Shown: positions 5,286 through 28,981 of the stretch, in pieces
Layout: the number at the start of each line of letters is the position of its first letter
How positions within the stretch are numbered: the first letter of the stretch is position 1
DNA from: Candidatus Methylomirabilota bacterium
Lineage (GTDB): Bacteria > Methylomirabilota > Methylomirabilia > Rokubacteriales > CSP1-6
Assembly: GCA_046723845.1 (NCBI GenBank)
Contig: JBKOVG010000159.1
Location: 764-64,763, forward strand
Length of the DNA: 64,000 nucleotides
Direction of reading: 5' to 3'
Notes under the pieces: model-generated
Told to the model about the DNA's origin: nothing
Seen by the model: the letters and a program-made list of their open reading frames with translations, nothing else
Databases searched by the model: none
Program-made: the position numbers and the translations under genes

Positions 5286-5411
5286 GTGCCGGGCTAAATT
5301 GCGAGCCAGACGAGGCCCGAGGGAGGCCGCAGCCCGAGGCGTATGTAGGTATACGTTGAGGGCGGCGGCCGACCGAGAACGAAGTATGGCGAAGTCAAGT
5401 TGGCCCGGCAC
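5286..5411 (+). repeat. Structured intergenic repeat, copy C (diverged member of the family also at 8597-8676 and 28893-28981)
   Basis: Closed by a perfect 9-bp helix, GTGCCGGGC (5286-5294) / GCCCGGCAC (5403-5411). An inner hairpin is GGCCGCAGCC (5325-5334) / GGCGGCGGCC (5361-5370). The core TTGAGGGCGGCGGCCGACCGAGAACGAAG..GAAGTCAAG resembles the A/B core. Confidence 0.45.
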
Positions 5412-5497
5412 TAGACGTGCCTGATCAGGCGACGACGACGGCGCCTCGCACTACGCGTCGGCGATCCTGGCGCTGCTCCTGGATCATGGCCCGCCGC

Positions 5498-6103
5498 TCA
5501 GGACTCGGGGGCGACCTGACGTAACGCCCAGCGCTGGCGCGCCTCGTGCACCCTCTCCTGCGACTCGGCGTCCCCCGTGGCGAGCTGCGCGGCGATGTGA
5601 AGGCACTGCTCGACCACCACGCGGTCGTCGAGCGCTTCGAAGGCCTCCGCGCTCCGGAGCGCGCCTTCGACCGAGTGTTCCCGACGGGCCCGGATGAGAG
5701 CGCTCAGGTAGGCCTCGCGCGCATTCATGCGCGCCCCTCGGGGAGTGCCGGCCGCGCGCCCGATGGCCACGAAGGCATCGCCCACCGCGATCATGCTCTC
5801 CCAGCTGCGGCTGCTGAGGGCAGCGCCGTAGGCGTCTTGCCAAGCCCTCACCGCCGCGTCGACACGTCCCTGCTCGAGTTCCTTGTCGACGACGGCCAGA
5901 TAGGTCCGCCAGAGCCCGTCATCTACCTTGCCGCCGGCGGGCAGGAGGCTCTCCAGCCCCTCGAGCTGCTCGTGCACGGCCGCGCGCGCGCCGCGCAACA
6001 CGCCGTCTTCCGGTCGGGGCACGGTCAGCCGCCCACCGTGGGCCAGGACGATACACAGGCCCAGGAGCGCGCTCGCGAGGAACAGCTGTCGTGGCGACGT
6101 CAT
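5498..6103 (-). CDS. Hypothetical secreted, mostly helical protein
   Basis: 201 aa. The N-terminal signal-like segment is MTSPRQLFLASALLGLCIVLAHG. I recognise no motif. Codon usage is consistent with neighbours. Confidence 0.55.
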   Translation of the reverse strand: MTSPRQLFLASALLGLCIVLAHGGRLTVPRPEDGVLRGARAAVHEQLEGLESLLPAGGKVDDGLWRTYLAVVDKELEQGRVDAAVRAWQDAYGAALSSRSWESMIAVGDAFVAIGRAAGTPRGARMNAREAYLSALIRARREHSVEGALRSAEAFEALDDRVVVEQCLHIAAQLATGDAESQERVHEARQRWALRQVAPES

Positions 6104-6242
6104 GACAATCGCCGTACCGGTATCATGCGCTGTCTGTTCATGGGGAACAGGCTTATCGCACGAGCCGGCTCGAGTCCTGGGAGAACCTAGGGATTACTCA
6201 GGGAGCGGGCGATCGGACCTGCGTGTGCTTACTGCGAGGGAC

Positions 6243-6944
6243 TCACTCGGTCTCGTCGGAGGCCGACGGCTTCACGTGCGGGATGACCAGCGTGAATTCC
6301 CCCCGCACCGTGCCCGCGGCGAAGCGCTCGTGCAGAGCGGAGGGGGTGCCGCGAAGGATCTCCTCGAACTGCTTGGTCAGCTCGCGCGCCACCACGATCT
6401 CGATCTGGCCGAACACCTGAGCGATGGCCTCCAGCGAGGCGAGCACGCGATGGGGAGACTCGTAGCAGACGATGGTCATCTCGAGATCGCGGAGCGCTTC
6501 CAGACGATGCACGCGCTTGCCCGGCTTCACGGGCAGGAAGCCGTCGAAGACGAAGCGATCGGCGGGGATACCCGCGGCGGAAAGCGCCGTCACCACCGCG
6601 GAGGGGCCGGGCACCGGCACCACCGGGATGCCCGCCGCCCGCGCCTCCCGCACGAGGAGAAATCCGGGATCGGAGATGCCGGGCGTGCCCGCGTCGGTGA
6701 CCAAGGCCACCGACGTGCCCTCGTGGAGCGTTCGCAGAATGGCCGGGCCCTTGGCCAGCTTGTTGTGCTCGAAGTAGCTCGTGACGGGCACGTGGATGCC
6801 GAAGTGAGTCAGGAGCGTACGCGTGCGGCGAGTGTCCTCGCAGGCGATCAGCCCCACTTCCTTGAGCACGCGCAGGGCGCGCATCGTCAGGTCCTCGAGG
6901 TTGCCGATGGGCGTGGCGACGACGTAGAGCGTGCCTGCACTCAC
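6243..6944 (-). CDS. rsmI: 16S rRNA (cytidine1402-2'-O)-methyltransferase
   Basis: The C-terminal 233 aa of the 457-aa track ORF read (V)SAGTLYVVATPIGNLEDLTMRALRVLKEVGLIACEDTRRT..., which is RsmI/tetrapyrrole-methylase fold. GTG at 6944 overlaps the upstream gene's stop (GTGA). The upstream part of the track ORF is Arg/Pro-rich shadow. Confidence 0.85.
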   Translation of the reverse strand: MSAGTLYVVATPIGNLEDLTMRALRVLKEVGLIACEDTRRTRTLLTHFGIHVPVTSYFEHNKLAKGPAILRTLHEGTSVALVTDAGTPGISDPGFLLVREARAAGIPVVPVPGPSAVVTALSAAGIPADRFVFDGFLPVKPGKRVHRLEALRDLEMTIVCYESPHRVLASLEAIAQVFGQIEIVVARELTKQFEEILRGTPSALHERFAAGTVRGEFTLVIPHVKPSASDETE

Positions 6945-7726
6945 GGCTTCGCCTGCACGGTGCGCGGGAAGTCGAGGATCATTTGGGCGAGGGCCTGGAG
7001 ACTCTCGTAGGGCTCGCCGCGCAGGGCCTGGCGAACGCGCTCCTCCTCGCCCACGACCAGCCGGATCATGACCGACCGGTGCGGCCCCGGCTCGCTGGGG
7101 TCCGCAGCTTGGGCGGGCCAGTCCTGGAGCAGCGCGGGAGAGTCGAGCACCTTGCCGACGAGGGTGACGTAGGCGGCCTCGTCGATGTCGCCCGCCCGCT
7201 CCCAGGCTGGCACCGCGACGCGCGTGCCGGACAGCGCCTCCGCCATCGCTCGCCCCTGTCTCGCCACGAGCCGCATCACCTGCCGGTCGCCCGCTGCCTC
7301 CAACGTCGGCCGCGTCTCGGTGAGCACGATGATGCGCGACTGCCGCGGGGCCAGCTCGAGGAGCGTGCGCCGCGCCCTGTCGATGCGGGCCTGCAGGACG
7401 TCGCGGCCCGCCGCGCCGGGCACCGCGATCAGGTACTGGCGCAGGCGAACGTAGGCGGCGAGCGGCCAGCCTGCTTCGGAGGCGGAGATCCCCCAGCGGC
7501 GGAGCACCTCGTCCGGCAGCGGCTCCTCCGAGAGGCGCGCGGCGGCCTCGAAGCTCACCAGGGCCTGCTCGAAGCGTCCCGCCTCGAATTCCTTGACGGC
7601 GCGGACGAGATACCACAGACGCTCCCGCCCGCCCGCCTCCGGCGCCTCCGCGCGCCCGGATCCCACCCCGGCCAGGATGAGCCAGGCGGCGAGCAGTGAC
7701 GTGACTGGACGAGCCATGGTCCTCAC
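6941..7726 (-). CDS. Hypothetical secreted protein
   Basis: 261 aa with signal peptide MARPVTSLLAAWLILAGVGSGRAEA. No recognisable catalytic motif. Stop-start overlap with rsmI suggests an operon. Confidence 0.55.
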   Translation of the reverse strand: MRTMARPVTSLLAAWLILAGVGSGRAEAPEAGGRERLWYLVRAVKEFEAGRFEQALVSFEAAARLSEEPLPDEVLRRWGISASEAGWPLAAYVRLRQYLIAVPGAAGRDVLQARIDRARRTLLELAPRQSRIIVLTETRPTLEAAGDRQVMRLVARQGRAMAEALSGTRVAVPAWERAGDIDEAAYVTLVGKVLDSPALLQDWPAQAADPSEPGPHRSVMIRLVVGEEERVRQALRGEPYESLQALAQMILDFPRTVQAKP

Positions 7727-7740
7727 GTCATCATTCTGGC

Positions 7741-8505
7741 ATGGACGGGCAATACACCGTGCGCACCCTCGCCGAAGCGCCGGAGCTGGAGCCGCATTTC
7801 CCTCGCCTCCACGCCGTGGCCTGGCCGCGCTTCGTGCACGAGGGCAACGGCACAGGCGGCCTCTGGGGCCGTCTCGGCAGCGACTTCCGGGACTTCCAGT
7901 TCGGGTTGTGGGACGAGACGGGCGCGCTCGCCGCGGTGGGCAACAGCATTCCCCTGATGTGCGACGGGACCAGGGGCGACCTGCCCCGCGACATTCCCGA
8001 GATCCTCCAGCGCGGCGTGGCCGTGCGTCGGGACGGGCGCCGCCCGAACGCGCTCTCGGCGCTCGCCGCCATCGTGGATCCGGCGCACCGCGCCCGCGGG
8101 CTGAGCCGTCGGATCATCGAGGCCATGCGGGACATCGCGCGTCGTCAGGGCCTTCTCACTCTCATCGCTCCCGTGCGGCCCACCCTCAAGGCGCTCTATC
8201 CCCTCACGCCCATGGATCGCTACATCACCTGGAAACGGGCCAACGGCTCGGCCTTCGATCCGTGGATCGGCGTGCACGAGAGCATGGGGGCGGAGATCCT
8301 CGCCGTGGCCCCCGCCGCCCTCGTGATCACGGACACGGTGGCGCGCTGGCAGGAATGGACGGGGATGGTCTTTCCGGAGAGCGGACGCTACGTGGTGACG
8401 GGCGCCTTCCAGCCCGTGACCGTGGATCTGCGGCGCAACGTGGGGCGCTACGAGGAAGCCAACGTGTGGATGAAGCACCCGCTCGCCCCGACCACGCACA
8501 CCTAA
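7741..8505 (+). CDS. GNAT-fold N-acetyltransferase-like protein with C-terminal extension
   Basis: 254 aa. An acetyl-CoA-binding motif-A-like segment is VDPAHRARGLSRRIIEAMRDIARRQG. The family assignment is approximate. Confidence 0.55.
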   Translation: MDGQYTVRTLAEAPELEPHFPRLHAVAWPRFVHEGNGTGGLWGRLGSDFRDFQFGLWDETGALAAVGNSIPLMCDGTRGDLPRDIPEILQRGVAVRRDGRRPNALSALAAIVDPAHRARGLSRRIIEAMRDIARRQGLLTLIAPVRPTLKALYPLTPMDRYITWKRANGSAFDPWIGVHESMGAEILAVAPAALVITDTVARWQEWTGMVFPESGRYVVTGAFQPVTVDLRRNVGRYEEANVWMKHPLAPTTHT

Positions 8506-8596
8506 GCTTCTGTGGGCCGCGAGGCCCAACCATGCACTGCCTGATGTACCGCTTCGAGCGCGGGCTTGGCCCGCGCAACCCGCTTCTGGGGGGAGG

Positions 8597-8676
8597 TTCG
8601 GAAGGGGACTGACTCGGTCCTCGTCTCGCGTCGGCCGCGGGCCGCCGCTCAACTCGAACTGCGGCCCCCCTCCGAA
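8597..8676 (-). repeat. Structured intergenic repeat, copy A
   Basis: Sits immediately 3' of the clpX stop. On the minus strand it reads TTCGGAGGGG-GGCCGCAGTTCGAGTTGAGCGGCGGCCC-GC-GGCCGACGCGAGACGAG-...-CCCCTTCCGAA. Identical 21-nt and 17-nt blocks are shared with copy B (28910-28930 and 28932-28948). Confidence 0.6.
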
Positions 8677-8678
8677 TA

Positions 8679-9929
<1,251 letters not shown>

Positions 9930-9939
9930 CCGCTGCCTC

Positions 9940-10569
9940 CTAACGCCCCGCCGCCACGACCGTGGCTTCGGCCACCGACCGCGTGGTGGGCTTAGAGGAG
10001 ATGACCTCGTCGACGATCTTGTATTCCCGGGCCTGCTCCGCGGTCATGAAGAAATCGCGGTCGGTGTCGCGCTGGATCTTCTCCATGCTCTGGCCCGTGT
10101 GGTGGATCAGGATGCGGTTCAGCTCCTCCCGCATGCGGAGGATCTCCTTGGCCTGGATGTCGATGTCCGTCGCCTGCCCCTGCACGCCACCCAGGGGCTG
10201 GTGGATCATGATACGCGCGTGGGGCAGCGCGAAGCGCTTCCCCTTGGCGCCGGCGCATAGCAGCAGAGCACCCATGGAAGCGGCCTGGCCCATGCAGATG
10301 GTGGAGATGGCCGGCTTCACATACTGCATGGTGTCGTAGATGGCCATGCCCGCCGTCACCGAGCCCCCCGGGGAGTTGATGTACAGCGAGATGTCCTTGT
10401 CGGGGTCCTCGGCTTCGAGGAAGAGCATTTGGGCGATGACGAGATTGGCGATCTCGTCCTCGATGTATGTCGGCAGGAAGATGATCCGCTCCTTCAGCAG
10501 ACGGGAGAAGATGTCGAAGGCCCGCTCGCCGCGGGGCGTCTGCTCCACCACCATTGGAACCAGACCCAT
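9940..10569 (-). CDS. clpP: ATP-dependent Clp protease proteolytic subunit ClpP
   Basis: Reads [32 protein letters not shown]...[11 protein letters not shown]...MIHQP, with the Ser-His-Asp context. An AGGAGG Shine-Dalgarno lies 7 nt upstream of ATG 10569. The track ORF starts 21 nt further upstream. Confidence 0.95.
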
Positions 10570-10604
10570 TGGGCGCCTCCTGGGTGCCATGCGGCCAGTG
10601 TACC

Positions 10605-11873
10605 CTAGGCCGCCACGCTAGACTTCGAGATGAGAAATTCAAGCGTCCGCGACTCGCGGAGGTTGTGCTTGAGCCCCTCCAGGTCGCCGTTCTGACTCAT
10701 GATCCGCCGGACGGCGGGGGCGGGGCGGTTGTTGGCCACCGCAATCTTCTCTACCTCGGCGTCGATGTCGCCATCGGTGGGGATGAGCCCCTCCTTCTCG
10801 GCGATGGCCTCCAGCACGAGGGACCGCCGCACCGCCTTCTCCGCTCCCGGCTTCAGCTCCTCCAGCATCTTGCCGTAGTCCCACGGCAGCTTGTCGGGGT
10901 CGATGCCCTGGCGCCGCATGCGCTCCCGGGTGTGCTCGATGAGGTGGCCGACTTGGCGGAGCACCAACGCATCGGGCACCTCGATCTGATGCCCGGCGAG
11001 CAGCGCCTCGATGACCGCGTCATCCAGCGCGCGCCGGTTCTCCGCGTCACGCCGGGACTGGAGGCCCTTGCGCACCTCGTCCCTGAGGGCGGCCAGGGTG
11101 TCGAACTGGCCCACCGTCTTGGCCAGCTCGTCGTCGAGGGCGGGCAGGATCTTCTCCTTCACCTCGCTCACCTTCACGCTGGCCACGCCCGACTTGCCGC
11201 GCAGCCCCTCGTTCCGGTGGTCGTCGGGGAAGCGCACGTTCGCCGTGCGCTCGCCGCCCGCGGCGAGCCCGATCACCGCCTCCTCGACCTCGCGCATCAC
11301 CGCGCCGGAGCCGACGAGAAAGCTGTAGCCCGTCTGGGTCAGCGGATCCATGCCCTCGGGGGTGAGGGTGTAGTCCATGATCACGAGGTCGTTGACGTCC
11401 GCGGGACGCTCCACCGTGCGGTACTCCGCGTGCTGCTCGCGGAGGCTCTCGAGGGCCTCGTCGACCTCACGCTCCTCGAAGGGCTTGGGCTGGTGCTTCA
11501 CGGCGAGCCCCGTGTACTGGCCGAGGGTGATGGCAGGCTTGATCTCGACGAGGGCCTCGAACTTGAGCGCCGCGCCCTCCTCGAGGGTTACTTCCTTCAG
11601 GTCGGGCTCCTCCACGGGACGGAGCTGCGTCTCCTCGAGCGCCTGGCGATAGACGTCTGGGATGAGGTGCCGAGCAACCTCCTGGCGCACGTCGTCGGAG
11701 AAGTGGAGCTTGATCATGCCCCGCGGCACCTTGCCCTTGCGGAAGCCGGGGAGCTTGGCCTCCTTCTGGACGCGGTTGAAGGCCTTCTCCCACGCCTTGC
11801 TGACGACGTCCGGGGTTTCCTCGACCTGCAGGCGGCGCTTGCAGGCGCCAAGCTCTTCGACGGCGACTTTCAT
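10605..11873 (-). CDS. tig: Trigger factor (ribosome-associated peptidyl-prolyl isomerase)
   Basis: 422 aa. N-terminal ribosome-binding motif GFRKGKVP. Conserved position upstream of clpP-clpX. Confidence 0.93.
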
Positions 11874-11896
11874 TCCGGCTCCTGAATGAGAAGGGC

Positions 11897-11982
11897 TGGT
11901 GCGAGAGGGGGGAGTTGAACCCCCACGGGGTTGACCCTCTGGATCCTAAGTCCAGCGCGTCTGCCAGTTCCGCCACTCTCGC
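11897..11982 (-). tRNA. tRNA-Leu (anticodon TAG), type II with long variable arm, CCA encoded
   Basis: The minus strand reads GCGAGAGTGGCGGAACTGGCAGACGCGCTGGACTTAGGATCCAGAGGGTCAACCCCGTGGGGGTTCAACTCCCCCCTCTCGCACCA. The acceptor stem is GCGAGAG/CTCTCGC. The anticodon stem is CTGGA/TCCAG with loop CTTAGGA. The T-arm is GGGGG-TTCAACT-CCCCC. Confidence 0.93.
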
Positions 11983-12074
11983 AGATGTGAGGGCAAGGAT
12001 ACCACAAGGCAACAACGGCGCCGCCGGGCGATCCGCCCGTCTCCACGGGGAGTTATGTCAACCGAGAGGCCGGG

Positions 12075-13802
12075 CTAGGTGTGGGGCCGGCCGAGCGCGG
12101 AGGGGGGGATGGGCGACCAGGCGACGATGGCCTCGAGCCAGCCCAGATCACGCGCGCTGAAGGCCGGCGCACTGGGATCTCGAGGCAGGAGCCAGCGCTG
12201 CACGTAGAGGGCGCCCACGAGAAGCTTGCGGAAGTCCTCGGCGCGGTCGCGCAGCACCTGCCCTTCGTGGAGGAGGAGGCTGGCCGCGAGCAGATGGTAG
12301 AGCTGATCGGCGGCAGGCTTGGCCTCGAGCTCGGCTTCCTCGCGGGACAGCGGCGCCCAGGCGTCGATGCGGTGCTTGAGGGACTCGACGGACTCCTGCA
12401 CGAGGTCGACCCAGGGCTTGGCCGCGGGTTCCGTCACCTGCTGGAGCTGCCCGCCGATGGCGGCGAAGAGCGGCTCGTGGCAGCGCTCGCGCACGATGGC
12501 GCGCTGTACGTCGAGGGCCACGATGGGGGTGGCGCCCTCCCAGATGGAGCCGAGGTAGGCGTCGCGTACGAGCCGCGCGTTGACCCACTCCTCGATGTAG
12601 CCGTTGCCGCCCCGCACGTTCATCGCCTCGCTCGTCACCGTGCGCGCCCGCGCGGTGATCCAACACTTGGCGATGGGGGTGAGGATGCGGAAGAGCTGCC
12701 GGTGCTCGGCCGAGCCGCGATTCCAGCGGTCGAAGATCGCCGCCGAGCTGAAGACGACGGAGGCGGCGGCCTCCACGTCGAGGAGCATCTCCAGCACGCT
12801 CGCGCGCAGCAGCGGGAGGGCGAGGAGCGGGCCGCCGAAGGCCGCCCGCCCGCGCGCGTGCACGAGCGACTCCAGGAGCGCCCGGCGCATGATGCCCGCC
12901 GCACGCATGGCGTTGGACAGGCGCGAGAGGTTGACCATCTCCATCATCTGCTTGAATCCCGCGTCGACTTCTCCCACCACGTAAGCCACTGCACCCTGAT
13001 AGCTCACCTCGCCCGAGGCCATGGAGCGTGAGCCGAACTTGTCCTTGAGCCGGTTGATGATCCAGCCGTTCTTGCTGCCGTCGGGCAGGCGCTTTGGCAC
13101 GAGGAACATGCCGAGCCCTCGCGTGCCCGCGGGCGCGCCCTCGGGCCGTGCCAGGGTGAGGGCAAGGTCGGTGTTGGCGTTGGAGCAGAACCACTTGTCG
13201 CCCCAGAGCCGCCACGTGCCGTCGCGGTCCTGCCGGGCGATCGTGGTGGCCGCGCCCACGTCGGAGCCGCCGGTCCTCTCCGTCATCCACTGCGTGCCCT
13301 GGAGGAGCTGATCGAAGTCCGTGGTGGTCAGCCGCGGGATCCAGGCCGCCTTCAGCTCCGGGCTGCCGTAGTGCTCGAGCATCCGCGCTGCCGAGTCCGT
13401 CATGTTGACGGGACAGAGCAGCCCGAACTCGGACTGGGCGAAGAGATACGAGAGCGCGTATTTCACGGTCTGGGGCACGCGCCCCGGCCAGCCGAGCACG
13501 CCGTCGCGATGCGAGAGCGCGGCGAGGCCGAAGCGGCTGAAGGCGATGCGCTCCATGGCCTTGTACGACGGGTGGAAGACCACTTCGTCCACGCGCCGGC
13601 CGCCCTGGTCGAAGGCGCGCAGGGTGGGCGGATTCTTGTCCGCCAGCGCCGCCAGCTCGTCCAGCTCGCCACCCGCCACCTCGCCCATCGCGGTGAGATG
13701 CGGGCGCGCGCGCTCGAATGTCGCGGCGTCCATCACCAGCTCGCACAGGAACTGGAGGTTCCTGTCCTCGAGGTAGAAGTTGAGGCCGCGCGTGGTCGGC
13801 AT
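12075..13802 (-). CDS. Acyl-CoA dehydrogenase family protein (AidB-like, long form)
   Basis: 575 aa from ATG 13802 (MPTTRGLNFYLEDRN...). ACAD-like segments include TERTGGSDVG, KWFCSN and GGNGYIEEW. The first 95 codons of the track ORF are Arg-rich shadow overlapping the next gene. Confidence 0.8.
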   Translation of the reverse strand: MPTTRGLNFYLEDRNLQFLCELVMDAATFERARPHLTAMGEVAGGELDELAALADKNPPTLRAFDQGGRRVDEVVFHPSYKAMERIAFSRFGLAALSHRDGVLGWPGRVPQTVKYALSYLFAQSEFGLLCPVNMTDSAARMLEHYGSPELKAAWIPRLTTTDFDQLLQGTQWMTERTGGSDVGAATTIARQDRDGTWRLWGDKWFCSNANTDLALTLARPEGAPAGTRGLGMFLVPKRLPDGSKNGWIINRLKDKFGSRSMASGEVSYQGAVAYVVGEVDAGFKQMMEMVNLSRLSNAMRAAGIMRRALLESLVHARGRAAFGGPLLALPLLRASVLEMLLDVEAAASVVFSSAAIFDRWNRGSAEHRQLFRILTPIAKCWITARARTVTSEAMNVRGGNGYIEEWVNARLVRDAYLGSIWEGATPIVALDVQRAIVRERCHEPLFAAIGGQLQQVTEPAAKPWVDLVQESVESLKHRIDAWAPLSREEAELEAKPAADQLYHLLAASLLLHEGQVLRDRAEDFRKLLVGALYVQRWLLPRDPSAPAFSARDLGWLEAIVAWSPIPPSALGRPHT

Positions 13803-13840
13803 CGCGTCCTGCGCCGGCGGCGGCGCGGGGCTGGTGAGGC

Positions 13841-20585: not shown

Positions 20586-20596
20586 AGGAGGCCCCC

Positions 20597-21031: not shown

Positions 21032-21041
21032 GGGGTCGGCG

Positions 21042-21860
21042 ATGAGCGAGCACGAGATCAAGCAGATCGTCAAGGACAAGTACGGTAAGGTCGCGCTCGA
21101 CGTGGTGGCGGGCGGTCATGCCTGTTGCGGGGGCACATCCGGGTGCGAGGGCGATCCCATCACGTCCAACCTTTACTCGGCGAGCGAGATCGCGTGCGTC
21201 CCCGGCGAGGCCGCGGCCGCCTCGCTCGGCTGCGGGAACCCCACGGCCCTGGCCGAGCTCAAGGCCGGCGAGACGGTGCTCGACCTGGGGTCGGGCGGTG
21301 GCATCGACGTGCTGCTCTCCGCCCAGCGGGTGGGACCGACCGGCAAGGCCTACGGGCTCGACATGACGGACGAGATGCTGGCGCTCGCGCGCGAGAACCA
21401 GCGCACGGCCGGCGTCGGCAACGTGGAGTTCCTCAAGGGCGAGATCGAAGCGATTCCGCTCCCGGACGACTCCGTGGACGTGATCATCTCGAACTGCGTG
21501 ATCAATCTTTCTGCGGACAAGGACCGCGTGCTGAGCGAAGCCTTCCGTGTGCTCAGGCCGGGTGGCCGCTTCGCCGTGTCCGACGTCGTGGTGAGCGGCC
21601 CCGTGCCCCCCGCCATCCGGCGCAGTGTCGAGCTCTGGATCGGGTGTGTGGCCGGCGCCCTCGAGGAGCGGGAGTACCGCGACAAGCTGGCCAAGGCCGG
21701 CTTTGAGGCAATCGACGTCGAGCCCACGCGCGTCTATCGCATGGAAGACGCGCGGGAGTTCCTCGCTGGCGCCGGCATCGACGCCGACGCCGTCGCGCCC
21801 CAGGTGGACGGCAAGTTCATGAGCGCCTTCGTCCGCGCCGTCAAGCCCGGCGCACGGTGA
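21042..21860 (+). CDS. arsM: Arsenite S-adenosylmethionine methyltransferase
   Basis: 272 aa. SAM motif [11 protein letters not shown]. Conserved Cys positions are GHACCGG...[12 protein letters not shown] and WIGCVAGA. Confidence 0.88.
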
Positions 21861-22573
21861 GCCGGGCGCACCCTCATCGACCCCAACTCCGGCGTCGGGT
21901 CGTGGCAGAGGCCGTGGGCACGGCGTTGCTGCTGGCCACGGTGATCGGCTCCGGAATCATGGGGGAACGCCTGGCCGGTGGGAACGTGGCGCTGGCGCTG
22001 GTGGCCAACACGCTGGCCACCGGCGCCGCCCTCGCGGCGCTCATTCTCACCTTCGGGCCCATCTCGGGCGCTCACTTCAACCCCGCGGTGACCCTCTCGG
22101 ATGCCTGGCAGGGCGGTATCGGGTGGGCCGACGTTCTGCCCTACGTGGTCGCGCAGGTCCTCGGCGCCTTCGCCGGGACCGCGGTGGCGCACATGATGTT
22201 CGAGCTGCCGCTCTACTCCGCATCCCAGCACGTGCGGACCGGTCCCGCCCAGATGTTCAGCGAGTTTGTGGCAACGTTCGGACTCCTCGCCGTCATCTGG
22301 GGTTGTGTCCGGTCACGCACGTCCACGGTCCCCTTCGCCGTGGCCGCCTACATCACGGCGGCGTACTGGTTCACGGCTTCCACCTCGTTCGCGAACCCGG
22401 CCGTGACCCTGGCCCGCGCCGCGTCGGATACCTTCGCGGGCATCCGGCCCGCCGACGCGCCGGGCTTCATCGTGGCGCAGCTCTGCGGGGCGGCAGCGGC
22501 CACCGGCCTCTTCCGGTGGCTGGTCCCTGCCTTGCCCGAGTCCGCGCCGGACGTGGTGGTCCGCCCACGTTGA
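21857..22573 (+). CDS. MIP-family aquaglyceroporin (AqpS-like arsenite channel)
   Basis: 238 aa with two NPA boxes (SGAHFNPAVT and SFANPAVT). The start overlaps the arsM stop. Confidence 0.88.
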   Translation: MSRAHPHRPQLRRRVVAEAVGTALLLATVIGSGIMGERLAGGNVALALVANTLATGAALAALILTFGPISGAHFNPAVTLSDAWQGGIGWADVLPYVVAQVLGAFAGTAVAHMMFELPLYSASQHVRTGPAQMFSEFVATFGLLAVIWGCVRSRTSTVPFAVAAYITAAYWFTASTSFANPAVTLARAASDTFAGIRPADAPGFIVAQLCGAAAATGLFRWLVPALPESAPDVVVRPR

Positions 22574-22743
22574 GCCTTTTCGCGGCGGGCGAAAGTGGAT
22601 GGCTCCTCGCCATCTGCGCGTCGCGGGTGGGCGCCTACATGGTCTACATCGCGTACGCGGCGACGCTCCCCGTGTTGCAAGCTTCGGTCCTTCATCAGCG
22701 CCGGGGCCCTCACTCTGCTCCCGTGTCCGCACCCGCGCGATGA
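22570..22743 (+). pseudogene. Possible N-terminal remnant of an MFS transporter gene / 57-codon bridging ORF
   Basis: The frame reads (L)SLFAAGESGWLLAICASRVGAYMVYIAYAATLPVLQASVLHQ... Compare the N-terminus of the downstream MFS, VCAQIGAYTWPALLPGF...YAAYTLAVPVL. TTG overlaps the aqp stop and TGA overlaps the arsN ATG. Confidence 0.3.
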
Positions 22744-23255
22744 CGACCGGACCCCGTACGCGGCTGGCCACGGTCGCCGACGCGGCAGCGATCGCGGAGA
22801 TTTATAACGAGGGCATCGCCGATCGCGTGGCCACGTTCGAAACGACGCCTCGCACCGCCGAGCAGCTCAGGACACAGCTCGCCGACAAGGGAGACCGCTT
22901 CCCGACGGTGGTGGTCGAGCGAGACGGGCGGATCGTGGCATGGGCGAGCGCCGTGCCCTATCGCAGTCGGCCCGCATACTCCGGCGTGGCCGAGCACTCC
23001 GTGTACGTGGCGCGCGCCGCCCGCGGCACGGGCGCAGGACGGCAGGCGCTCGAGGCCCTCTGTCACGTCTATGCGGAGCGCGGCTTCTGGAAGATCGTGT
23101 CGCGGATCTTTCCGGAGAACACGGCGAGCCTGGCCCTTCACGAGCGATGCGGCTTCCGCGTGGTCGGCATCTATCACCGTCACGGCAAGCTGGACGGACA
23201 GTGGCGGGACTGCGTGATCGTGGAGCGGCTGATCGACGGGTCACCGGGAGACTGA
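22740..23255 (+). CDS. ArsN1/phosphinothricin-N-acetyltransferase-like GNAT
   Basis: 171 aa. Reads ATVADAAAIAEIYNEGIADRVATFETTPRT...[20 protein letters not shown]...ASLALHERCGFRVVG, the PAT-family pattern, inside an ars cluster. Confidence 0.8.
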   Translation: MTTGPRTRLATVADAAAIAEIYNEGIADRVATFETTPRTAEQLRTQLADKGDRFPTVVVERDGRIVAWASAVPYRSRPAYSGVAEHSVYVARAARGTGAGRQALEALCHVYAERGFWKIVSRIFPENTASLALHERCGFRVVGIYHRHGKLDGQWRDCVIVERLIDGSPGD

Positions 23256-23256
23256 C

Positions 23257-23673
23257 ATGGCCAGATCGCGGGTGCTGTTTCTGTGCACGCACAATTCGGC
23301 GCGCAGCCAGATGGCCGAGGGCTTGCTGCGCTCCATGGCCGGCGACCGCCTCGAAGTGGGCAGCGCGGGAACGGAAAAGACCTCGGTGAATCCGCTGGCG
23401 ATCCGGGTCATGGCCGAGCTGGGCATCGACATCACCGGTCATACCTCGAAGCGGTACGAAGACGTCATGAGCCAGGGATGGGACAGCATCATCACGGTCT
23501 GTGACGATGCCAACGAGCGCTGCCCGGTTGTTCCCGGCTTGGTCAAGCGATTGCACTGGTCGTTCGAGGATCCGTCGCGAGCCTCCGGCGTTGAGGAGCA
23601 GCGTCTCGCGGTGTTCCGTCGCGTGCGCGACCAGATCGAAGCGCGTCTCACGGCATGGCTGAAGAGCCCTTAG
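23257..23673 (+). CDS. arsC: Arsenate reductase, LMW-PTP (thioredoxin-coupled) type
   Basis: 138 aa. The P-loop is LCTHNSARS (CX5R), and the downstream Cys pair is in TVCDDANERCP. Confidence 0.9.
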   Translation: MARSRVLFLCTHNSARSQMAEGLLRSMAGDRLEVGSAGTEKTSVNPLAIRVMAELGIDITGHTSKRYEDVMSQGWDSIITVCDDANERCPVVPGLVKRLHWSFEDPSRASGVEEQRLAVFRRVRDQIEARLTAWLKSP

Positions 23674-23725
23674 TGCGGCCGAGTCCGCCCTGCGCACCCT
23701 GACCCCGGCTCGTCTGGTCACCGGC

Positions 23726-24952
23726 GTGTGCGCGGCGCAGGTGTGCGCCCAGATTGGAGCGTACACGTGGCCGGCACTCCTGCCCGGGTTCATCGCCGAC
23801 TGGCAGCTCAGCAACGGCGAGGCCGGCTGGATCACCGGGGTCTTCTACGCGGCCTACACGCTCGCCGTGCCAGTGCTCGTCACCCTCACGGATCGTGTCG
23901 ATGCCCGCGTCGTCTACCTGTCGGGAGTCGCCCTCACGATCGCGAGCCATCTGGGCTTCGCCGCGCTCGCGGATGGCTTCTGGAGCGCGCTGGTGGCGCG
24001 CACGCTGGCCGGGGTGGGGTGGGCGGGCACGTACATGACGGGATTGAAGCTCCTGGCCGATCGAGTGGATCCCGTCCTCATGTCGCGCGCGGTCGCCGGC
24101 CATGCCGCGAGCATCGGCATCGCCGGCGCGCTCTCCTTTGCGTTCGCCGGCACGCTGAACCGCTGGTACGGCTGGCGGGGAGCATTCGTGGGTGCGGGGC
24201 TGGCCGCGCTGGTCGCCTGGATCGTCGTGTTCTGGTGGGCGCCCTCGCGCGAGCGACGCCCGTCCCCGACCTCGCCGGCAGCGCTCTTCGACTTCCGCCC
24301 CGTGCTCCGCAATCGCTCCGCGATGGCATACGCCCTGGCCTACTCGGCCCACACGTGGGAAATGAACGCATTGCGAGGCTGGGCCGTGACCTTTCTGACG
24401 TACGTGGCCGCGGCGAGCAGCGAACAGAACCCTTGGATGGCGCCCACCCTCGTGGTCACGACCATGGGCCTCGTCGGCACCGGGGCGAGCGTGGCGGGGA
24501 ACGAAGCGTCGATCAAGCTGGGCCGCCAGCGCCTGGTCCGGCTGGTCATGCTGTCGTGCGCGATGTGCGCCGCCGGCATCGGGTTCCTGGGGCCCCGATC
24601 GTACCCGCTCGCGGCCGCCCTGGTCCTCGGCTACGGGCTCCTCATCTGGCTCGACTCCTCGTCTCTCACTGCAGGGGCGGCGGGCAGCGCCGATCCGTCA
24701 CGCCGGGGAGCCACGCTGGCCGTCCACTCGATGGCCGGCTACGCGGGCGGCTTCGTCGGACCGATCATGATCGGCTGGATTCTCGACCGCGCTGGCGGCA
24801 TGTCGCCTCTTGGCTGGGGACTGGCATTCCTGCACCTTGGCATTGTCGTCCTCGCCGGCCGGTTCGCATTCGTATGGCTTGCTCCGCGCGACCTGGCTGG
24901 CGATAGGGCCGAGCGGAGGCTATGGCGAGCGACCAACGGAGGCCGCCCATGA
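23726..24952 (+). CDS. MFS transporter embedded in the ars cluster (substrate unknown)
   Basis: 408 aa and 12-TM-like. The first canonical start is GTG 23726, but the frame is open and hydrophobic back to 23672 with only CTG codons, so the true start is uncertain. Confidence 0.75.
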   Translation: MCAAQVCAQIGAYTWPALLPGFIADWQLSNGEAGWITGVFYAAYTLAVPVLVTLTDRVDARVVYLSGVALTIASHLGFAALADGFWSALVARTLAGVGWAGTYMTGLKLLADRVDPVLMSRAVAGHAASIGIAGALSFAFAGTLNRWYGWRGAFVGAGLAALVAWIVVFWWAPSRERRPSPTSPAALFDFRPVLRNRSAMAYALAYSAHTWEMNALRGWAVTFLTYVAAASSEQNPWMAPTLVVTTMGLVGTGASVAGNEASIKLGRQRLVRLVMLSCAMCAAGIGFLGPRSYPLAAALVLGYGLLIWLDSSSLTAGAAGSADPSRRGATLAVHSMAGYAGGFVGPIMIGWILDRAGGMSPLGWGLAFLHLGIVVLAGRFAFVWLAPRDLAGDRAERRLWRATNGGRP

Positions 24953-25410
24953 TGCTCGTGACCATCGCCGCCGAACGTCCTGACACGCCCGACGCGACCA
25001 CGCTCATCAACGAGCTGCAGACGCACCTCGAATCGTTCTACCCGCCCGAGAGCCGCCACGGGTTCAGCGTGGACAAGCTGATCGCTCAAGGCGTTGGGTT
25101 CTTCGTCCTGCGTGTCGACGGCCAGGCGGCGGGGTGCGGCGGCATCATGCTCGTCGGAAACGAATACGGCGAGATCAAGCGCATGTACGTGCGGCCCGAG
25201 TTCCGCGGTCGCCAGTACGGCAAGCGACTCATCGACCACCTCGCGGCCCACGCGCGCAGCCACGGCGTCACGCTCCTGCGGCTCGAGACAGGCATCCACC
25301 AGCAGGCGGCCATTCGGCTGTACGAGCAATACGGCTTCCGGCGGATTCCACCCTTCGGCCCGTATTTCGACGATCCACTCAGTCGCTGCTACGAGTTGTC
25401 GCTGGCGTAG
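24949..25410 (+). CDS. GNAT-family N-acetyltransferase
   Basis: 153 aa from ATG 24949, in ATGA overlap with the MFS stop. Motif A is VRPEFRGRQYGKRLIDHL, followed by RLYEQYGFRRI. Confidence 0.8.
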   Translation: MMLVTIAAERPDTPDATTLINELQTHLESFYPPESRHGFSVDKLIAQGVGFFVLRVDGQAAGCGGIMLVGNEYGEIKRMYVRPEFRGRQYGKRLIDHLAAHARSHGVTLLRLETGIHQQAAIRLYEQYGFRRIPPFGPYFDDPLSRCYELSLA

Positions 25411-25459
25411 CTGGCTCGGGCGGCGCCCGCTCGCATAGACCTCTCGAAGCTCGACCGCG

Positions 25460-26659
25460 TCACCGTGGGGCGGGACGTCGACAGCGCGTGAGCTGGCGCT
25501 CGAGGAAGCGGCGCTCCGGCGCCGAGGTCGGGCGGGTCAACGCCTCCTCGTAGTACCGCGCGGCGCGCTCGGCGTCTCCCGCCTCGAGCCACAGGCGGCC
25601 GAGGGCCGCGGGCAGGAGATAGTAGCGGGCGAGCGCGGGATCGGCCTCGATGCGCTCGAGCGCGGCGATGCCGGCGGCAGGCCCCGTCGCCTTCGCCAGC
25701 GCGATCGCCCGGTTGAGCTCGACCACGGGCGACGGCTTGAGCTCCAGCAGGTCGTCGTAGTGCCGCACGATGCCGGGCCAGTCCGTGGAAGCCTCGTCGG
25801 AGGCTACTGCATGCGTGGCCGCGATGGCCGCCTCCACGTGATACCCGGTGATGCGATCGCCCGAAGCGGCACGCTCCAGATGGCGGAGCCCGCGCCCGAT
25901 CAAGGCCTGGTCCCAGGCGCGGCGGTCCTGCTCGGCGAGGAGGAGCAGGTCTCCCGTCTCGTCCACCCGCGCGGGGAGGCGGCTCGCCTGCAGCAGCATG
26001 AGCGCGAGCAACGCGTGCACGGCGGGCAGGTCGGTGACCGGATTGCCGCCGAGGATCTCCGCGAGCCGGATGGCCTCGCCGCAGAGCTCCGTCCGCGTCA
26101 GGTTCGGGCCGCCGTGCGCGCCGTAGCCCTCGTTGAAGAGCAGGTAGAGCACGTCGAGCACGCTGTCGAGCCGTGCGCCGATCTCGGCTTCGGGCGGAAT
26201 CTTGATGGAGATGTTCTGCTCGCGGATCTGCCGCTTGGCGCGAACCAGGCGCTGGGCGATGGCCTCGGGCTCCGCGAGGAACGCCGCCGCGATCTCCTCC
26301 ACGCTGAAGCCGCCCACCGTCTTGAGGGTGAGGGCCACCCGCGCGGGCGCGGGCAGGGAGGGATGACAGCACATGAACATCATGGCGAGCTCGTCGTCGC
26401 CCAGCGCCTTCGCGGGCTCGGACATCGGCGCGGACTCGGCCTCCGCGCGCACGCCATCAAGCTTGCTCCGGAGGGACGCATCGCGCCGCAGCAGATCGAC
26501 GGCGCGGTTCCGCGCCACCTGGAAGAGCCACCCGCGCGGCTCGGCCGGCACGCCGCTGAAAGGCCAGGTGGAGAGCGCCCGCACGAGGGCGTCCTGCACC
26601 GCCTCCTCGGCGAGATCGAGCCGCGCCGATCCGAGCCAGCGCGCCAGTCGCGACACCAT
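25460..26659 (-). CDS. ECF-type RNA polymerase sigma factor with long C-terminal TPR-like domain (YCII-associated type)
   Basis: Region 2 (DLAEEAVQDALVRAL...RGWLFQVARNRAVDLLRR) and region 4 (VALTLKTVGGFSVEEIAAAFLAEPEAIAQRLVRAKRQI) are followed by a ~230-aa helical domain. The conserved-looking N-terminal segment (VGELVEHLFRHSAGQ) lies upstream of ATG 26659 with no canonical start (see findings). Confidence 0.8.
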   Translation of the reverse strand: MVSRLARWLGSARLDLAEEAVQDALVRALSTWPFSGVPAEPRGWLFQVARNRAVDLLRRDASLRSKLDGVRAEAESAPMSEPAKALGDDELAMMFMCCHPSLPAPARVALTLKTVGGFSVEEIAAAFLAEPEAIAQRLVRAKRQIREQNISIKIPPEAEIGARLDSVLDVLYLLFNEGYGAHGGPNLTRTELCGEAIRLAEILGGNPVTDLPAVHALLALMLLQASRLPARVDETGDLLLLAEQDRRAWDQALIGRGLRHLERAASGDRITGYHVEAAIAATHAVASDEASTDWPGIVRHYDDLLELKPSPVVELNRAIALAKATGPAAGIAALERIEADPALARYYLLPAALGRLWLEAGDAERAARYYEEALTRPTSAPERRFLERQLTRCRRPAPR

Positions 26660-26703
26660 CTGCCCCGCGCTGTGCCGGAACAGATGCTCGACGAGCTCGC
26701 CGA

Positions 26704-26727
26704 CCTCGGGTCGGTCCTCGGGTCGGT
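26704..26727. repeat. Perfect 2 x 12-bp tandem duplication
   Basis: CCTCGGGTCGGT CCTCGGGTCGGT on the + strand. It is in frame with the sigma reading frame (DRPE-DRPE) and abuts the YCII stop codon. Confidence 0.9.
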
Positions 26728-27086
26728 CAGCCGAGATGGCTCAGGTCCTCGATCTCGCGGACCTCCAGGACGCCGGGACCATCGAGATGAGGGTGGTTCG
26801 CGAGCAGCTCGAGCATCTCGTCGTAGCTCTTGGCCTCGACGAGCCAGAAGCCTCCCACGACCTCCTTCGACTCGACGAAGGGCCCATCCGTCACCATCAT
26901 CTTTCCGCCCTGGCCGCGCAGGACGCGCCCTTCCCCGGCACGCAGCTTCTCCGAATGGAGGATGCGGCCGGCTTGTCGGAGGTTCGCGTTCCAGCTCATG
27001 TACTTCTGGATCACCTTCTGGACTTCCTGCGGGCTCAGCGTGCTCGGTATCCCCGCGCCACGAGCAATGACCAGATATTTCGCCAT
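26727..27086 (-). CDS. YCII-related (DGPF) domain protein
   Basis: 119 aa. Reads MAKYLVIARG...MVTDGPFVESKEVVGGFWLVEAKSYDEMLELL. AAGGAGG Shine-Dalgarno lies upstream. Confidence 0.85.
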   Translation of the reverse strand: MAKYLVIARGAGIPSTLSPQEVQKVIQKYMSWNANLRQAGRILHSEKLRAGEGRVLRGQGGKMMVTDGPFVESKEVVGGFWLVEAKSYDEMLELLANHPHLDGPGVLEVREIEDLSHLG

Positions 27087-27192
27087 GGTTGGCCTCCTTT
27101 TCGTCTCAAAGACGAACGGGGGCGTGGAGAATCGACAGGCCGGTGTGCCTACGAGCGCGTCTCCTGCCCCTGGAAAGCGGACTTCGGATGCG

Positions 27193-28032
27193 CTACGCGA
27201 GCTCGGGCCAGACCACCATGCCCGTCCCGGAGCGCCAGGCCAGGGCGGGCATATAGGCGAGCACCTCGGCCGGGCCCCTCGTGAATGCCATGGCGAGCAC
27301 CCACGCGATCAGCTCCGCGGTGCCGCCCGAGCCCGCCTCCTCCATGCGCTCGAGCGTGCACTCGCGCAGGAGGGCCTGGTGATCGCCCTTCTTGAGGAGA
27401 TCCAGGAACCAGAGATCGAACTCCTCGTCCACCCAGAAGTAGCGCGGCCCGCCCGGCTCGTGGGAGAGGCCGCCCGTGGCGAGGATGGCGATGCGCTCCT
27501 GGCCCGGATAGGCCTTGAGCATCTCCCGCAGCGTCGTGCCGACCTGATAGGCGCGCTCGGGGGTAGGAATGGGCGGCACCGTGCAGTTCATGGTCACGGG
27601 CACGAGGGGAATCGAGCCGGCGGGATTGAGATAGTGCATGGGCACGGACACGCCGTCGTCGAACTGCATCCGGCGCAGGTAGGCGAAGGCGATGCGCCGG
27701 CGCGCTCCCTCGTCGACGATGTAGCGCGCGAGGGCGGGGTGGCCGGGAATGCGGTATTGCTTCATGTCCAGCCACTCGTCGTACCACTCGGCGGGGCCCA
27801 CGTGCTCGGCGGCGATCCCCACGGTGTACTCCGGCGTGTTGTTGATGGGCCAGTTGAGCAGATGGTCGTTGCTGAACACCACGACGACGTCGGGGCGAGC
27901 TCGGGCGAGGCGCTCCCGCATCTCGCCCATGGCGCGCAGGGCCTGCTCTTGGTAGTCCTTCGGGGCGCGGTCGAACCAGCCCGTGAGCCCCGGGGAGTGC
28001 GTCATGGCCATGGCGGCGACGATCTGGACCAT
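27193..28032 (-). CDS. Class III extradiol ring-cleavage dioxygenase, LigB-type catalytic subunit
   Basis: 279 aa. Reads MAMTHSPG...VVVFSNDHLLNW...ATGGLSHEPGGPRY, a protocatechuate-4,5 / gallate dioxygenase beta-subunit-like pattern. Confidence 0.8.
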   Translation of the reverse strand: MVQIVAAMAMTHSPGLTGWFDRAPKDYQEQALRAMGEMRERLARARPDVVVVFSNDHLLNWPINNTPEYTVGIAAEHVGPAEWYDEWLDMKQYRIPGHPALARYIVDEGARRRIAFAYLRRMQFDDGVSVPMHYLNPAGSIPLVPVTMNCTVPPIPTPERAYQVGTTLREMLKAYPGQERIAILATGGLSHEPGGPRYFWVDEEFDLWFLDLLKKGDHQALLRECTLERMEEAGSGGTAELIAWVLAMAFTRGPAEVLAYMPALAWRSGTGMVVWPELA

Positions 28033-28035
28033 GGC

Positions 28036-28383
28036 TCAGCGCCCCCGCTTCTCGAGCTGGTCCTGGAGCCGCTCAGAGCGGGCCGCCTCTTCCGGATAGG
28101 CGCGCTTGTAAGCCTCCAGCGCGGGGTGGCTGTTCGAGTTGGCGGCCGCGCCGTAGAAGAGGCGGAGGATCTGCGGCACATAGTACTGGTGCACGCCCAG
28201 GTCGTGGAGGCGCCGCACGTCCTTGGTGCGAAGGGCGTCGAACTCCTCTGCGCTCAGTCCGAACTCGCGCGCGATGCCCTCGAGGTCGGTGAGCCAGCGC
28301 GCGCGCAGCCCGGCATCGCGCCGCACGTGGTACATCATCTCGTTCAGGGGCAGGGTCTTGATGCAGCGATCGACGTTACCCAT
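28036..28383 (-). CDS. LigA-type small subunit of aromatic ring-opening dioxygenase
   Basis: 115 aa. Reads LNEMMYHVRRDAGLRARWLTDLEGIAREFGLSAEEFDALRTKDVRRLHDLGVHQYY, directly upstream of the LigB-type gene. Confidence 0.7.
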   Translation of the reverse strand: MGNVDRCIKTLPLNEMMYHVRRDAGLRARWLTDLEGIAREFGLSAEEFDALRTKDVRRLHDLGVHQYYVPQILRLFYGAAANSNSHPALEAYKRAYPEEAARSERLQDQLEKRGR

Positions 28384-28753
28384 CGCTCGCCCCCTTCAGG
28401 ATCTTGGGATTGACCTTGAGGAACATGATCACGCAGCGGGTCGACCCGAGGTTGCGTACGTCGTGGAGCACGGCATTGGGAAACTTTACGATCGATCCCG
28501 CGGGCACCACCACTTCCTCGCCGCCGATGTTCATATTGGCGGTGCCCTCGAGGACGTAAATGGCCTCTTCCTCCTTCGGGTGCTGGTGCATCACCGTCGA
28601 CTGGCCGGGCTCGTAGCAGGCGATCTCCGACCAGAGCTGATCGGACTTGAAGAGCATCTTGCGCACGCGCTTGTCGGGCGCAAAGTCCTTGAGGGCGTGG
28701 AGATCGAAGAGCTCCGCGACCCCCTTCACCGTGGCCACCGCTGTCTCGTCCAT
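28376..28753 (-). CDS. Cupin-2 domain protein
   Basis: 125 aa from ATG 28753 with AAGGAGG Shine-Dalgarno. Cupin motifs are GQSTVMHQHPKEEEAIYVLEG...VVPAGSIVKFPNAVLHDVRN. There is an 8-nt overlap with the LigA-type gene. Confidence 0.8.
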   Translation of the reverse strand: MDETAVATVKGVAELFDLHALKDFAPDKRVRKMLFKSDQLWSEIACYEPGQSTVMHQHPKEEEAIYVLEGTANMNIGGEEVVVPAGSIVKFPNAVLHDVRNLGSTRCVIMFLKVNPKILKGASDG

Positions 28754-28892
28754 GAGCTGGCCTCCTTGCCTCGGGCCCGCATCATAGCCCCATCGCGCCC
28801 CTCGGGCCACCCGCAGACGGCCGAGAAGGGTCCAGATGCGAGGCGGCGCCCGACGGCAGCCGGCGAGGCGTAGTCTGTCTACGCTAGCCGGC

Positions 28893-28981
28893 GGCCGAGG
28901 GCGGCCGCCGTTCGAGTTGAGCGGCGGCCCTGGCCGACGCGAGACGAGAGCTGAGTCGAAGCAGATGGGCCCTGCTCGGCC
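28893..28981 (+). repeat. Structured intergenic repeat, copy B
   Basis: Reads GGCCGAG-GGCGGCCGCCGTTCGAGTTGAGCGGCGGCCC-T-GGCCGACGCGAGACGAG-...-CTCGGCC. The inner hairpin is GGCCGCCG/CGGCGGCC and the outer helix is GGCCGAG (28893-28899) / CTCGGCC (28975-28981). A wider GCTAG/CTAGC pair (28883-28887 / 28989-28993) includes the permease stop codon. Confidence 0.6.

Follow-up and report, generated by a model that had tools for sequence, protein, structure and literature searches.

Nested hairpin repeats beside TAG stops, a probable system of selfish DNA in Rokubacteria

Three intergenic stretches in a segment of 64,000 nucleotides from a Candidatus Methylomirabilota bacterium (Rokubacteriales; assembly GCA_046723845.1, contig JBKOVG010000159.1, positions 764 to 64,763 of the forward strand; this whole segment is called the window, and coordinates without a contig name are counted from its first nucleotide) are probably parts of a so far undescribed family of Rokubacteria repeats that are small, mobile and non-coding and form hairpins. 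Together these repeats seem to make up a composite, layered system of selfish hairpin DNA whose members nest in one another and settle beside TAG stops, and we regard the whole with fair confidence as a variant of selfish repeat DNA that involves no new RNA gene. The first layer consists of host hairpins of types 1 and 2, which behave as miniature transposable elements, and the second of a module of 52-57 nt that has repeatedly been added to other hairpins, in their single-stranded loops. Within the range of the scans, the system is confined to the Rokubacteriales (Methylomirabilota). Two of the three stretches are copies of the module in two different hosts and the third is a module-free relative of one of these hosts, so that the original observation of three related copies is real but mis-assembled.

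The first-pass annotation of the window had described A (8597-8676, minus strand), B (28893-28981, plus strand) and C (5286-5411) as three copies of one structured core, each enclosed by a closing helix of unrelated sequence. Reading the window bears out the sequences and positions that it gave for all three, the three outer helices are present as written, and A and B do share identical blocks of 21 and 17 nt, which occur two and four times, respectively, in the genome from which the window comes (G000; 6.34 Mb, 450 contigs, 68% G+C). The similarity between A and B is far above chance (nhmmer E=6e-25 and 2e-22; blastn 88.7% over 62 nt). A search of the genome with a profile of A and B returns about ten strong relatives (E=1e-21 to 1e-8) and many weaker ones and does not return C even at E<=10, and the idea of three copies of one core is therefore rejected; the annotation had itself made its reading depend on alignment statistics for C, and these do not support the similarity. 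The short words that C shares with A and B follow from a shared motif grammar (CGAGG / UUGAG). Ten short copies of the type 1 hairpin, none of which carries the A/B core, served to build a covariance model (R1); this model matches C over its full length (5280-5418, 43.5 bits, E=1e-8) and B locally (52.7 bits), which makes C a diverged relative of the host of B and not of the A/B core. The closing stems belong to different multi-copy host repeats, and they differ because one small module is nested in different hosts; selection on the structure of a single core, for which they had been taken as the signature, is not what they record.

A search with nhmmer and eight seed copies finds 78 copies of the module in G000. 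Eleven lie inside type 1 repeats, at three different positions, about 36 inside type 2 repeats (in the apical loop or the 3'-arm internal loop, some of them in tandem), one inside a type 3 repeat (copy A), about 22 directly behind a type 4 hairpin CCCTCTCCCC-N4-GGGGAGAGGG, three in a 105-nt tandem array on contig C198, and about five elsewhere. Within hosts the insertion sites are always loops; tandem units occur, and the module can amplify in tandem. Its conserved parts are GTTCGAG-YYGAG and GAGRCGAG-RGCTGAG, and the stem between them is variable. The consensus fold of 37 distinct copies (RNAalifold) is a rod of 3 bp, tandem G.A, 3 bp, tandem G.A and the variable apical stem, i.e., UUC/GA/GYU/GA/stem-loop/GA/GRC/GA/GAG. 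Across these copies the rod pairs in 93.8% of cells vs 82.5% in shuffles, with none of 500 shuffles as high and slid controls at <=54%, and its covariation is 0.387 vs 0.200 in shuffles, again with none of 500 as high; double changes affect six of the ten pairs, for example C-G 26 with U-A 9 or C-G 21 with G-C 14. The hairpin GGCCGC(A/C)G...CGGCGGCC, which had been proposed to open the core and which A and B are able to form, is not the fold that is conserved, as it pairs in 57.8% of cells vs 56.9% in shuffles. Covariation supports the rod fold and not this hairpin. Folded alone, copy A adopts as its minimum-energy structure the rod with two tandem G.A loops (on the minus strand), and copy B adopts the hairpin, rod and hairpin being alternatives of similar energy. 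On contig C198 (13100-13480), three tandem units of 105 nt, which may overlap coding sequence, each consist of one module followed by AACAAGAGATGGACCGCGAGATGGCCTGACCCGCATGCGCTACGGCTTCGTGATCGAT.

In the window, the 57-nt module of copy A (CCGCAGTTCGAGTTGAGCGGCGGCCCGCGGCCGACGCGAGACGAGGACCGAGTCAGT; 8608..8664, minus strand; nhmmer E=1.4e-11) sits in the apical loop of the first hairpin of a type 3 repeat of 130 nt (8545..8676, minus strand), which starts 2 nt past the TAA stop (8679-8681) of clpX, a gene identified by Pfam. This host is laid out as a hairpin TTCGGAGGGG / CCCCTTCCGAA, then CCTCCCCCC, then a second hairpin GCGCGGGC-caag-GCCCGCGC and finally TCGAAGCGGTACA. The module of copy B (28903..28957, plus strand; E=4.5e-13) occupies the 3'-arm internal loop of a type 1 hairpin, in place of the CCAA of the short form. 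Its host is a long-form type 1 hairpin of 175 nt (28813..28987, plus strand) with the module map M1-M2-M3-M4-M5 and the outer helix GCAGACGGCCGAG / CTCGGCCGTCTGC, and it ends 1 nt before CTA (28989-28991), the TAG stop of a minus-strand ABC permease gene. Copy A is in sense to clpX and copy B antisense to both of its neighbors. The gene context described earlier stands for A, which lies in a convergent gap after clpX, and for B, which lies between the ABC permease stop and the cupin start. At C, no long open reading frame (ORF) terminates in the adjacent TAG.

Type 1 is present in about 22 copies of ~130-180 nt in G000, with the common ends GGTCCAGATGCGAGGCGGCGCC (5') and GAAGCAGATGGGCCC (3') and an interior of two sizes, a short form with a 96-nt core and long forms of 143-147 nt which contain the A/B core. 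A further helix encloses them, of which the inner part is conserved (CGAGAAG/CTTATCG or CTCAAAA/TTTTCAG) and the outer 9-10 bp vary around GCAGGCGGC. That this outer helix might be a pre-existing terminator into whose loop the element had jumped is ruled out by the common consensus GCAGGCGGC and by the absence of such a hairpin at empty sites. RNAalifold of 10 short copies yields a long rod with 48 pairs, in which G.U pairs are conserved and internal loops, e.g., GAGG/UUGA, are rich in purines. Compensatory double changes are found in 17 of the 48 pairs, and the host hairpin comprises 1331 Watson-Crick cells across 34 copies from about 25 genomes. Compensatory change, which the annotation had proposed to test for, is thus real in both module and host hairpins.

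Type 2 is represented in G000 by about 26 leader-bearing copies of ~172-350 nt overall, with the ends CTAG|TGCGCC...GGCAC|TAG. A leader of ~46 nt, CTAG|TGCGCCTCCAACGAGTATTGGCTACACGCCACGTG..CCGCAGA, precedes the hairpin GTGCCGGGCC...GGCCCGGCAC, which is followed by |TAG, and the hairpin part measures 126, 171, ~216 or 305 nt depending on the number of A/B-type modules, from zero to several. Copy C is a complete basic repeat of this type without a module (5240..5411, plus strand), consisting of a 46-nt leader (5240-5285) and a 126-nt hairpin (5286-5411) with TA within CTAG at both sides (5237-5240 and 5411-5414). The helix GTGCCGGGC/GCCCGGCAC that closes copy C is the terminal stem conserved in type 2, and the copy folds at -72.7 kcal/mol (z=-7.6). 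A remnant of type 2 at 48223..48282 (minus strand), i.e., CTAG, leader, GTGCC|CGGCAC and TAG, is the only leader match without a hairpin; the whole 116-nt hairpin interior is precisely absent, as expected from deletion across a palindrome. Contigs C151, C184, C397, and C366 of G000 stop inside type 2 copies or tandem module units, and these repeats thus add to the fragmentation of the assembly.

The type 3 host of copy A became apparent from the 3' arm of its closing helix (CCCCTTCCGAA), which opens a 63-nt stretch with about 20 other copies in the genome (e.g., C418:4814-4876 and C51:15525-15587). With their upstream flanks these form an element of ~85 nt that lies 1-6 nt past the stop (TAA, TAG, or TGA) of a co-oriented gene and has the layout CTCGGAGGGGGG-CTTCG-CCCCCCTTCCGAA, then CCTCCCCCC, then the hairpin GCGCGGGC-AAAG-GCCCGCGC and then TCGAAGCGGAACA; in copy A, the 57-nt module replaces the CTTCG loop. 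The strict sense orientation of type 3 past stops suggests either a role resembling that of a 3' untranslated region or terminator or a very specific insertion rule. In the type 4 context the hairpin and the module behind it are followed by AGGGGG (e.g., C355:9300-9400, C126:7775-7860, C407:5168-5250), and the module has its own apical-stem variant, CGCTCG-CCT-CGAGCG. One type 4 context is found in the intergenic region of genome G006 that is orthologous to the site of copy A.

The element is non-coding, structured and present in many copies, and copy counts and covariation already refute chance, a decayed coding relic or low-complexity G+C-rich DNA as its origin, a reading whose probability we consider practically nil. 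Short palindromes are common in a genome of 68% G+C and the folding z-scores of the module itself are weak (-1.4 to -2.0), but within-genome E-values reach 1e-25, the 78 module copies show ordered covariation, the host hairpin folds at z=-7.6, and relatives carry hundreds of copies.

Comparison of orthologous sites reveals presence and absence between close species. Seven sites were compared and each is empty in one to eight congeners. At the site of copy B, the closest sampled species, G004 (85% flank identity), has a short, module-free type 1 copy in the same place after the permease TAG, and the outer helices of G000 and G004, GCAGGCGGC/GCCGCCTGC vs GCAGACGGC/GCCGTCTGC, differ by a compensated change, G-C to A-U; G001 and G009 have an empty site, where the orthologous permease gene ends in ...CTAG. 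Similarly, the type 3 repeat that G004 has at the site of copy A lacks the module and has CTTTG as its loop, and G001 and G009 have neither repeat nor module. Both modules of the window were therefore gained in the G000 lineage after its split from the nearest sampled species, as two gains are more economical than two precise losses, given that the ancestral states are the common forms and that the modules of A and B are 89% identical. Further type 1 sites on contigs C72 (empty in G002, G003, G005, and G008, filled in G004), C425 (empty in G006 and G009, filled in G004) and C142 (empty in G007 and G009) vary in the same manner, as do type 2 sites on C7 (empty in eight congeners) and on C237 and C226 (both empty in G004 and others). 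In place of the CTAG-element-TAG of G000, the sequences of the C7 site fetched from G001, G003, G004, and G005 have a single CTAG that serves as the stop of the upstream gene. [quoted passage not shown]

Both host hairpins insert immediately next to CTAG, which at 68% G+C is for the most part the TAG stop of a gene. In type 1, 17 of 22 copies are directly followed by CTA(G/A/N), 13 of them by CTAG, and in 10 of these 17 a convergent ORF, whose G+C content at third codon positions is of the coding type, terminates at the CTA. The left side of type 1 has no matching sequence, and the element on C72 lies between native spacer and native CTAG without any duplication. In type 2, 15 of 20 copies touch the TAG stop of a gene, 11 at the hairpin end and four at the leader end, and TA/CTAG is found at both sides vs a single CTAG in the empty site. 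CTAG occurs at only 0.48 per kb in G000. Since empty sites already carry the TAG, it is the target and not a stop supplied by the element. Diverged copies from other families of the order have the right-hand TAG as well, and frequently a second CTAG lies 4-60 nt upstream. At L026:1450-1700 (G037), leader and hairpin are flanked by a direct repeat of 18 nt, CTAGTCCCACGCGAGCCC, which is much longer than the usual CTAG, and some insertions therefore duplicate the 3' end of the neighboring gene.

The footprint of type 2 resembles that of MITEPsy1 from Pseudomonas syringae, a MITE derived from the insertion sequence (IS) IS5 that duplicates CTAG or YTAA (PMC3189936). Like IS5/IS630-derived MITEs, which are non-coding, measure ~100-200 nt, and insert at CTAG (or YTAA) and duplicate it (PMC3189936), type 2 shows exactly this footprint; unlike them, the repeats described here have minimal terminal repeats (GTGC...GCAC) and a conserved long hairpin interior, type 1 makes no duplication, and no parent IS was found for them. 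The footprint of type 1 and the fold on one strand are closer to the logic of HUH (histidine-hydrophobe-histidine) transposases, as in IS200/IS605 or IS91. One might accordingly take the elements for relatives of REPINs (hairpin-forming REP doublets) or PATEs (palindrome-associated transposable elements), moved as single-stranded DNA hairpins by a Y1 or Y2 transposase, with CTAG as the recognized flanking tetranucleotide and no true target duplication. The one-sided CTAG of type 1 without duplication, the strand specificity of the fold, conservation that resides in the shape of the hairpin and not in the termini, and the presence of Y2_Tnp genes in 23 of 41 related genomes all agree with such an origin, which we nevertheless think unlikely. 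The type 2 sites look like classical TA/CTAG duplications as in IS5-derived MITEPsy1 (PMC3189936), neither Y1 nor Y2 loci share ends with the repeats, and Y1_Tnp is absent from G000, G001, G002, G004, G006, G008, and G012, which hold from 20 to at least 79 copies, and neither Y1 nor Y2 presence correlates with copy number, although the incompleteness of metagenome-assembled genomes (MAGs) weakens these last two arguments.

REP/REPIN systems with their REP-associated tyrosine transposases (RAYTs) share with the present elements hairpin repeats flanked by a conserved tetranucleotide, a single-strand logic, compensatory changes in the arms and an intergenic position near stops. In REP/REPIN systems the tetranucleotide is GTAG, whereas here it is CTAG, which belongs to the target and pre-exists in empty sites; the present elements are modular and measure 130-350 nt vs 20-40 nt, and most of the copy-rich genomes lack a RAYT/Y1 gene (PF01797 absent from 15 of 19, with MAG incompleteness as a caveat). 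The ERIC sequences of enterobacteria, which are imperfect palindromes of ~127 bp, are likewise long imperfect intergenic hairpin repeats near gene ends with compensated arm changes, no known transposase and size variants that arise by discrete internal insertions at fixed inner positions. They have no sequence relation to the Rokubacteria elements and belong to a different phylum, whereas here a strict CTAG/TAG-stop neighborhood is observed, purine-rich loops favor one strand and the inserted piece is a multi-copy module shared by several unrelated hosts. The BOX elements (boxA-boxB(n)-boxC) of Streptococcus pneumoniae are also modular, mosaic non-coding repeats with a middle module of ~45 nt in variable tandem number and a stable overall fold. 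In contrast to BOX modules, which keep one fixed order within one element, the module described here is also found in the loops of other repeat families, or alone behind other hairpins. Literature searches on Rokubacteria repeats returned nothing relevant, and those on MITE, CTAG and stop codon nothing relevant beyond MITEPsy1.

R1 matches are found in 28 of 41 related genomes. From 21 to at least 79 copies are present in each of nine congeners and in one other genus; most of the family's remaining genera have 0-3, and numbers in other families of the order are intermediate. A scan of 185,579 species genomes with an exact pattern of the module retrieves, among the matches listed, almost only MAGs of Methylomirabilota/Rokuibacteriota. 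Among these matches only L084 (a 3.5-kb contig of a Vicinamibacteria MAG) and L150 (a contig of an Aquiluna sp. MAG) lie outside the Methylomirabilota, which could be due to mis-binning, transfer or chance.

Candidate movers were counted over the 41 related genomes, 19 of them element-rich and 22 element-poor (PF01609 over 11 genomes only). Y1_Tnp (PF01797) is present in 4 of 19 element-rich and 7 of 22 element-poor genomes (Fisher p 0.5), DDE_3 (PF13358) in 10 of 19 and 11 of 22 (p 1.0), and Y2_Tnp (PF04986) in 12 of 19 and 11 of 22 (p 0.5), although MAGs lose IS copies and the absence of a transposase is weak evidence. RAYT/IS200 (PF01797), IS630 (PF13358), IS5 (PF01609), and IS91 (PF04986) were rejected as movers for want of a correlation with copy number and of repeat-like ends. 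No long element with the ends of the repeats was found in G000, where every left end is followed by a right end within 400 nt or by the end of the contig. Nor did the sampled transposase loci, those of PF01609 included, give any terminal inverted repeats by which the repeats would match a resident autonomous IS.

Several observations weigh against selfish repeats as the whole explanation. No autonomous partner was found, the presence of Y1_Tnp, DDE_3, and Y2_Tnp does not track copy number over the 41 genomes, and no similarity of ends exists between the repeats and the sampled DDE_3, DDE_Tnp_1, Y1_Tnp, and Y2_Tnp loci. Type 1 shows no target duplication. Its variation is greatest at the termini, and its conservation across five families of the order is greatest at the apex CGAGGCGUA-loop-UACGUUGAG; an ordinary MITE has the opposite pattern, which is a hint that the folded core has a function. 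A functional RNA, too, would be expected to conserve G.U pairs and tandem G.A. Finally, copies within one genome are related, so that shuffle controls overstate their independence.

The strand on which the elements fold bears on the same question. It is always the same strand that is more stable in type 1 (22 of 22 copies, mean 15.7 kcal/mol) and type 2 (20 of 20, 16.3), and so it is in 74 of 78 modules, because both loop arms are purine-rich (G.A, G.U). In the variable helices, G.U vs A.C mismatches number 30 vs 22 once three conserved G.U positions are removed, which is not clearly asymmetric; the comparison of folding energies gives the clearer answer. Strand-specific folding with conserved G.U pairs and tandem G.A loops, together with helices that change between five families of the order around a nearly invariant apex, would suit a functional structured RNA, i.e., a protein-binding motif, 3'-end stabilizer or antisense element in the module and/or the host apex that is spread by the repeats or has domesticated them, and whose fold is selected at the RNA level. 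The type 3 host, always co-oriented and directly past an upstream stop, would fit as well, and copy A would be transcribed in sense if clpX reads through. We judge this improbable, as copy B is antisense to both neighbors and the gene upstream of type 1 is co-oriented in only 11 of 22 cases, sites are filled or empty between close species, the module occurs at >=6 kinds of position and in tandem arrays, the mirrored copy described below is an event at the DNA level, and neither a promoter or terminator consensus nor an Rfam family was found. With Rfam 15, the window yields only a tRNA at the gathering threshold, and A, B, and C score <=19 bits when scanned permissively, in agreement with the earlier statement that no riboswitch or housekeeping RNA can be recognized. 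No terminator-like site is present at B or C and the aligned flanks of type 1 and type 2 lack T runs; an intrinsic terminator, with a G+C-rich stem and a U tract, was rejected for this element. An integron attC site was likewise rejected upon inspection of the aligned ends, as the boundaries are CTAG and not the GTTRRRY that the 3' boundary of an attC site (R''/L''-L'/R' boxes) would have, and as the neighbors are not gene cassettes but ordinary housekeeping genes (clpX, ABC permease, cupin).

The mirrored copy is found in a type 2-like element at L085:3786-4100 (Methylomirabilota MAG, isolate SMAG_U11643) which carries three modules, in the apical loop, the 3' arm, and the 5' arm. The module of the 5' arm is a near-exact reverse complement and lies opposite the 3'-arm copy. 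A complementary insertion of 50 nt is impossible by point substitutions and points to one arm having served as template for the other. Quasi-palindromes are known to mutate by template switching, which can also yield "compensatory" changes without selection on an RNA. Several further contigs of the SMAG_U11643 genome show the same plus/minus module pairs, 81 nt apart.

For the selfish repeats that we favor, the folded single strand of one particular strand may be the active form, as all elements fold better on that strand. The host hairpins would be moved by an enzyme supplied in trans, and the module might spread when copying at stalled hairpins switches template or is mediated by microhomology, or else through the enzyme that moves the host hairpins. 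Complementarity of the arms would be maintained by selection for the fold together with intrastrand template switching, and effects on adjacent genes, such as that of a strong hairpin at a stop codon, would be by-products. More speculatively, and in our view with little likelihood, the nearly invariant purine-rich loops (apical CGAGGCGUA...UACGUUGAG; in the module UUCGAG-YUGAG / GAGGCGAG) could be bound by a protein or ribonucleoprotein dedicated to them, which would act in trans, recognize the folded single strand and paste hairpins into the loops of others and beside CTAG, or which would alternatively use the same fold as RNA. If so, the 52-57-nt module would be among the smallest autonomous-looking mobile units known and its insertion would follow a structure-targeted, loop-seeking mechanism that is so far undescribed.

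What is new here is that the module is nested, that it folds as a rod, that it was gained recently at two orthologous sites and that a mirrored copy exists. An invariant apex and loops with variable termini, a fold on one strand and additions directed to loops are unexplained by textbook MITE biology and possibly point to a new mechanism of mobilization. For RNA discovery the elements call for caution, as selection on one RNA is not needed for a conserved core whose closing stems differ but are always complementary; such a core can also arise by nesting of a module in different hairpins and by copying between hairpin arms at the DNA level. Hairpins 0-3 nt past TAG stops may affect termination or the stability of mRNA 3' ends at dozens of genes, and such effects have been reported for REP elements near stop codons in E. 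coli. The genomes of Rokubacteria are unusually large, with 8-17% non-coding DNA (PMC5712423), part of which is accounted for by these repeats.

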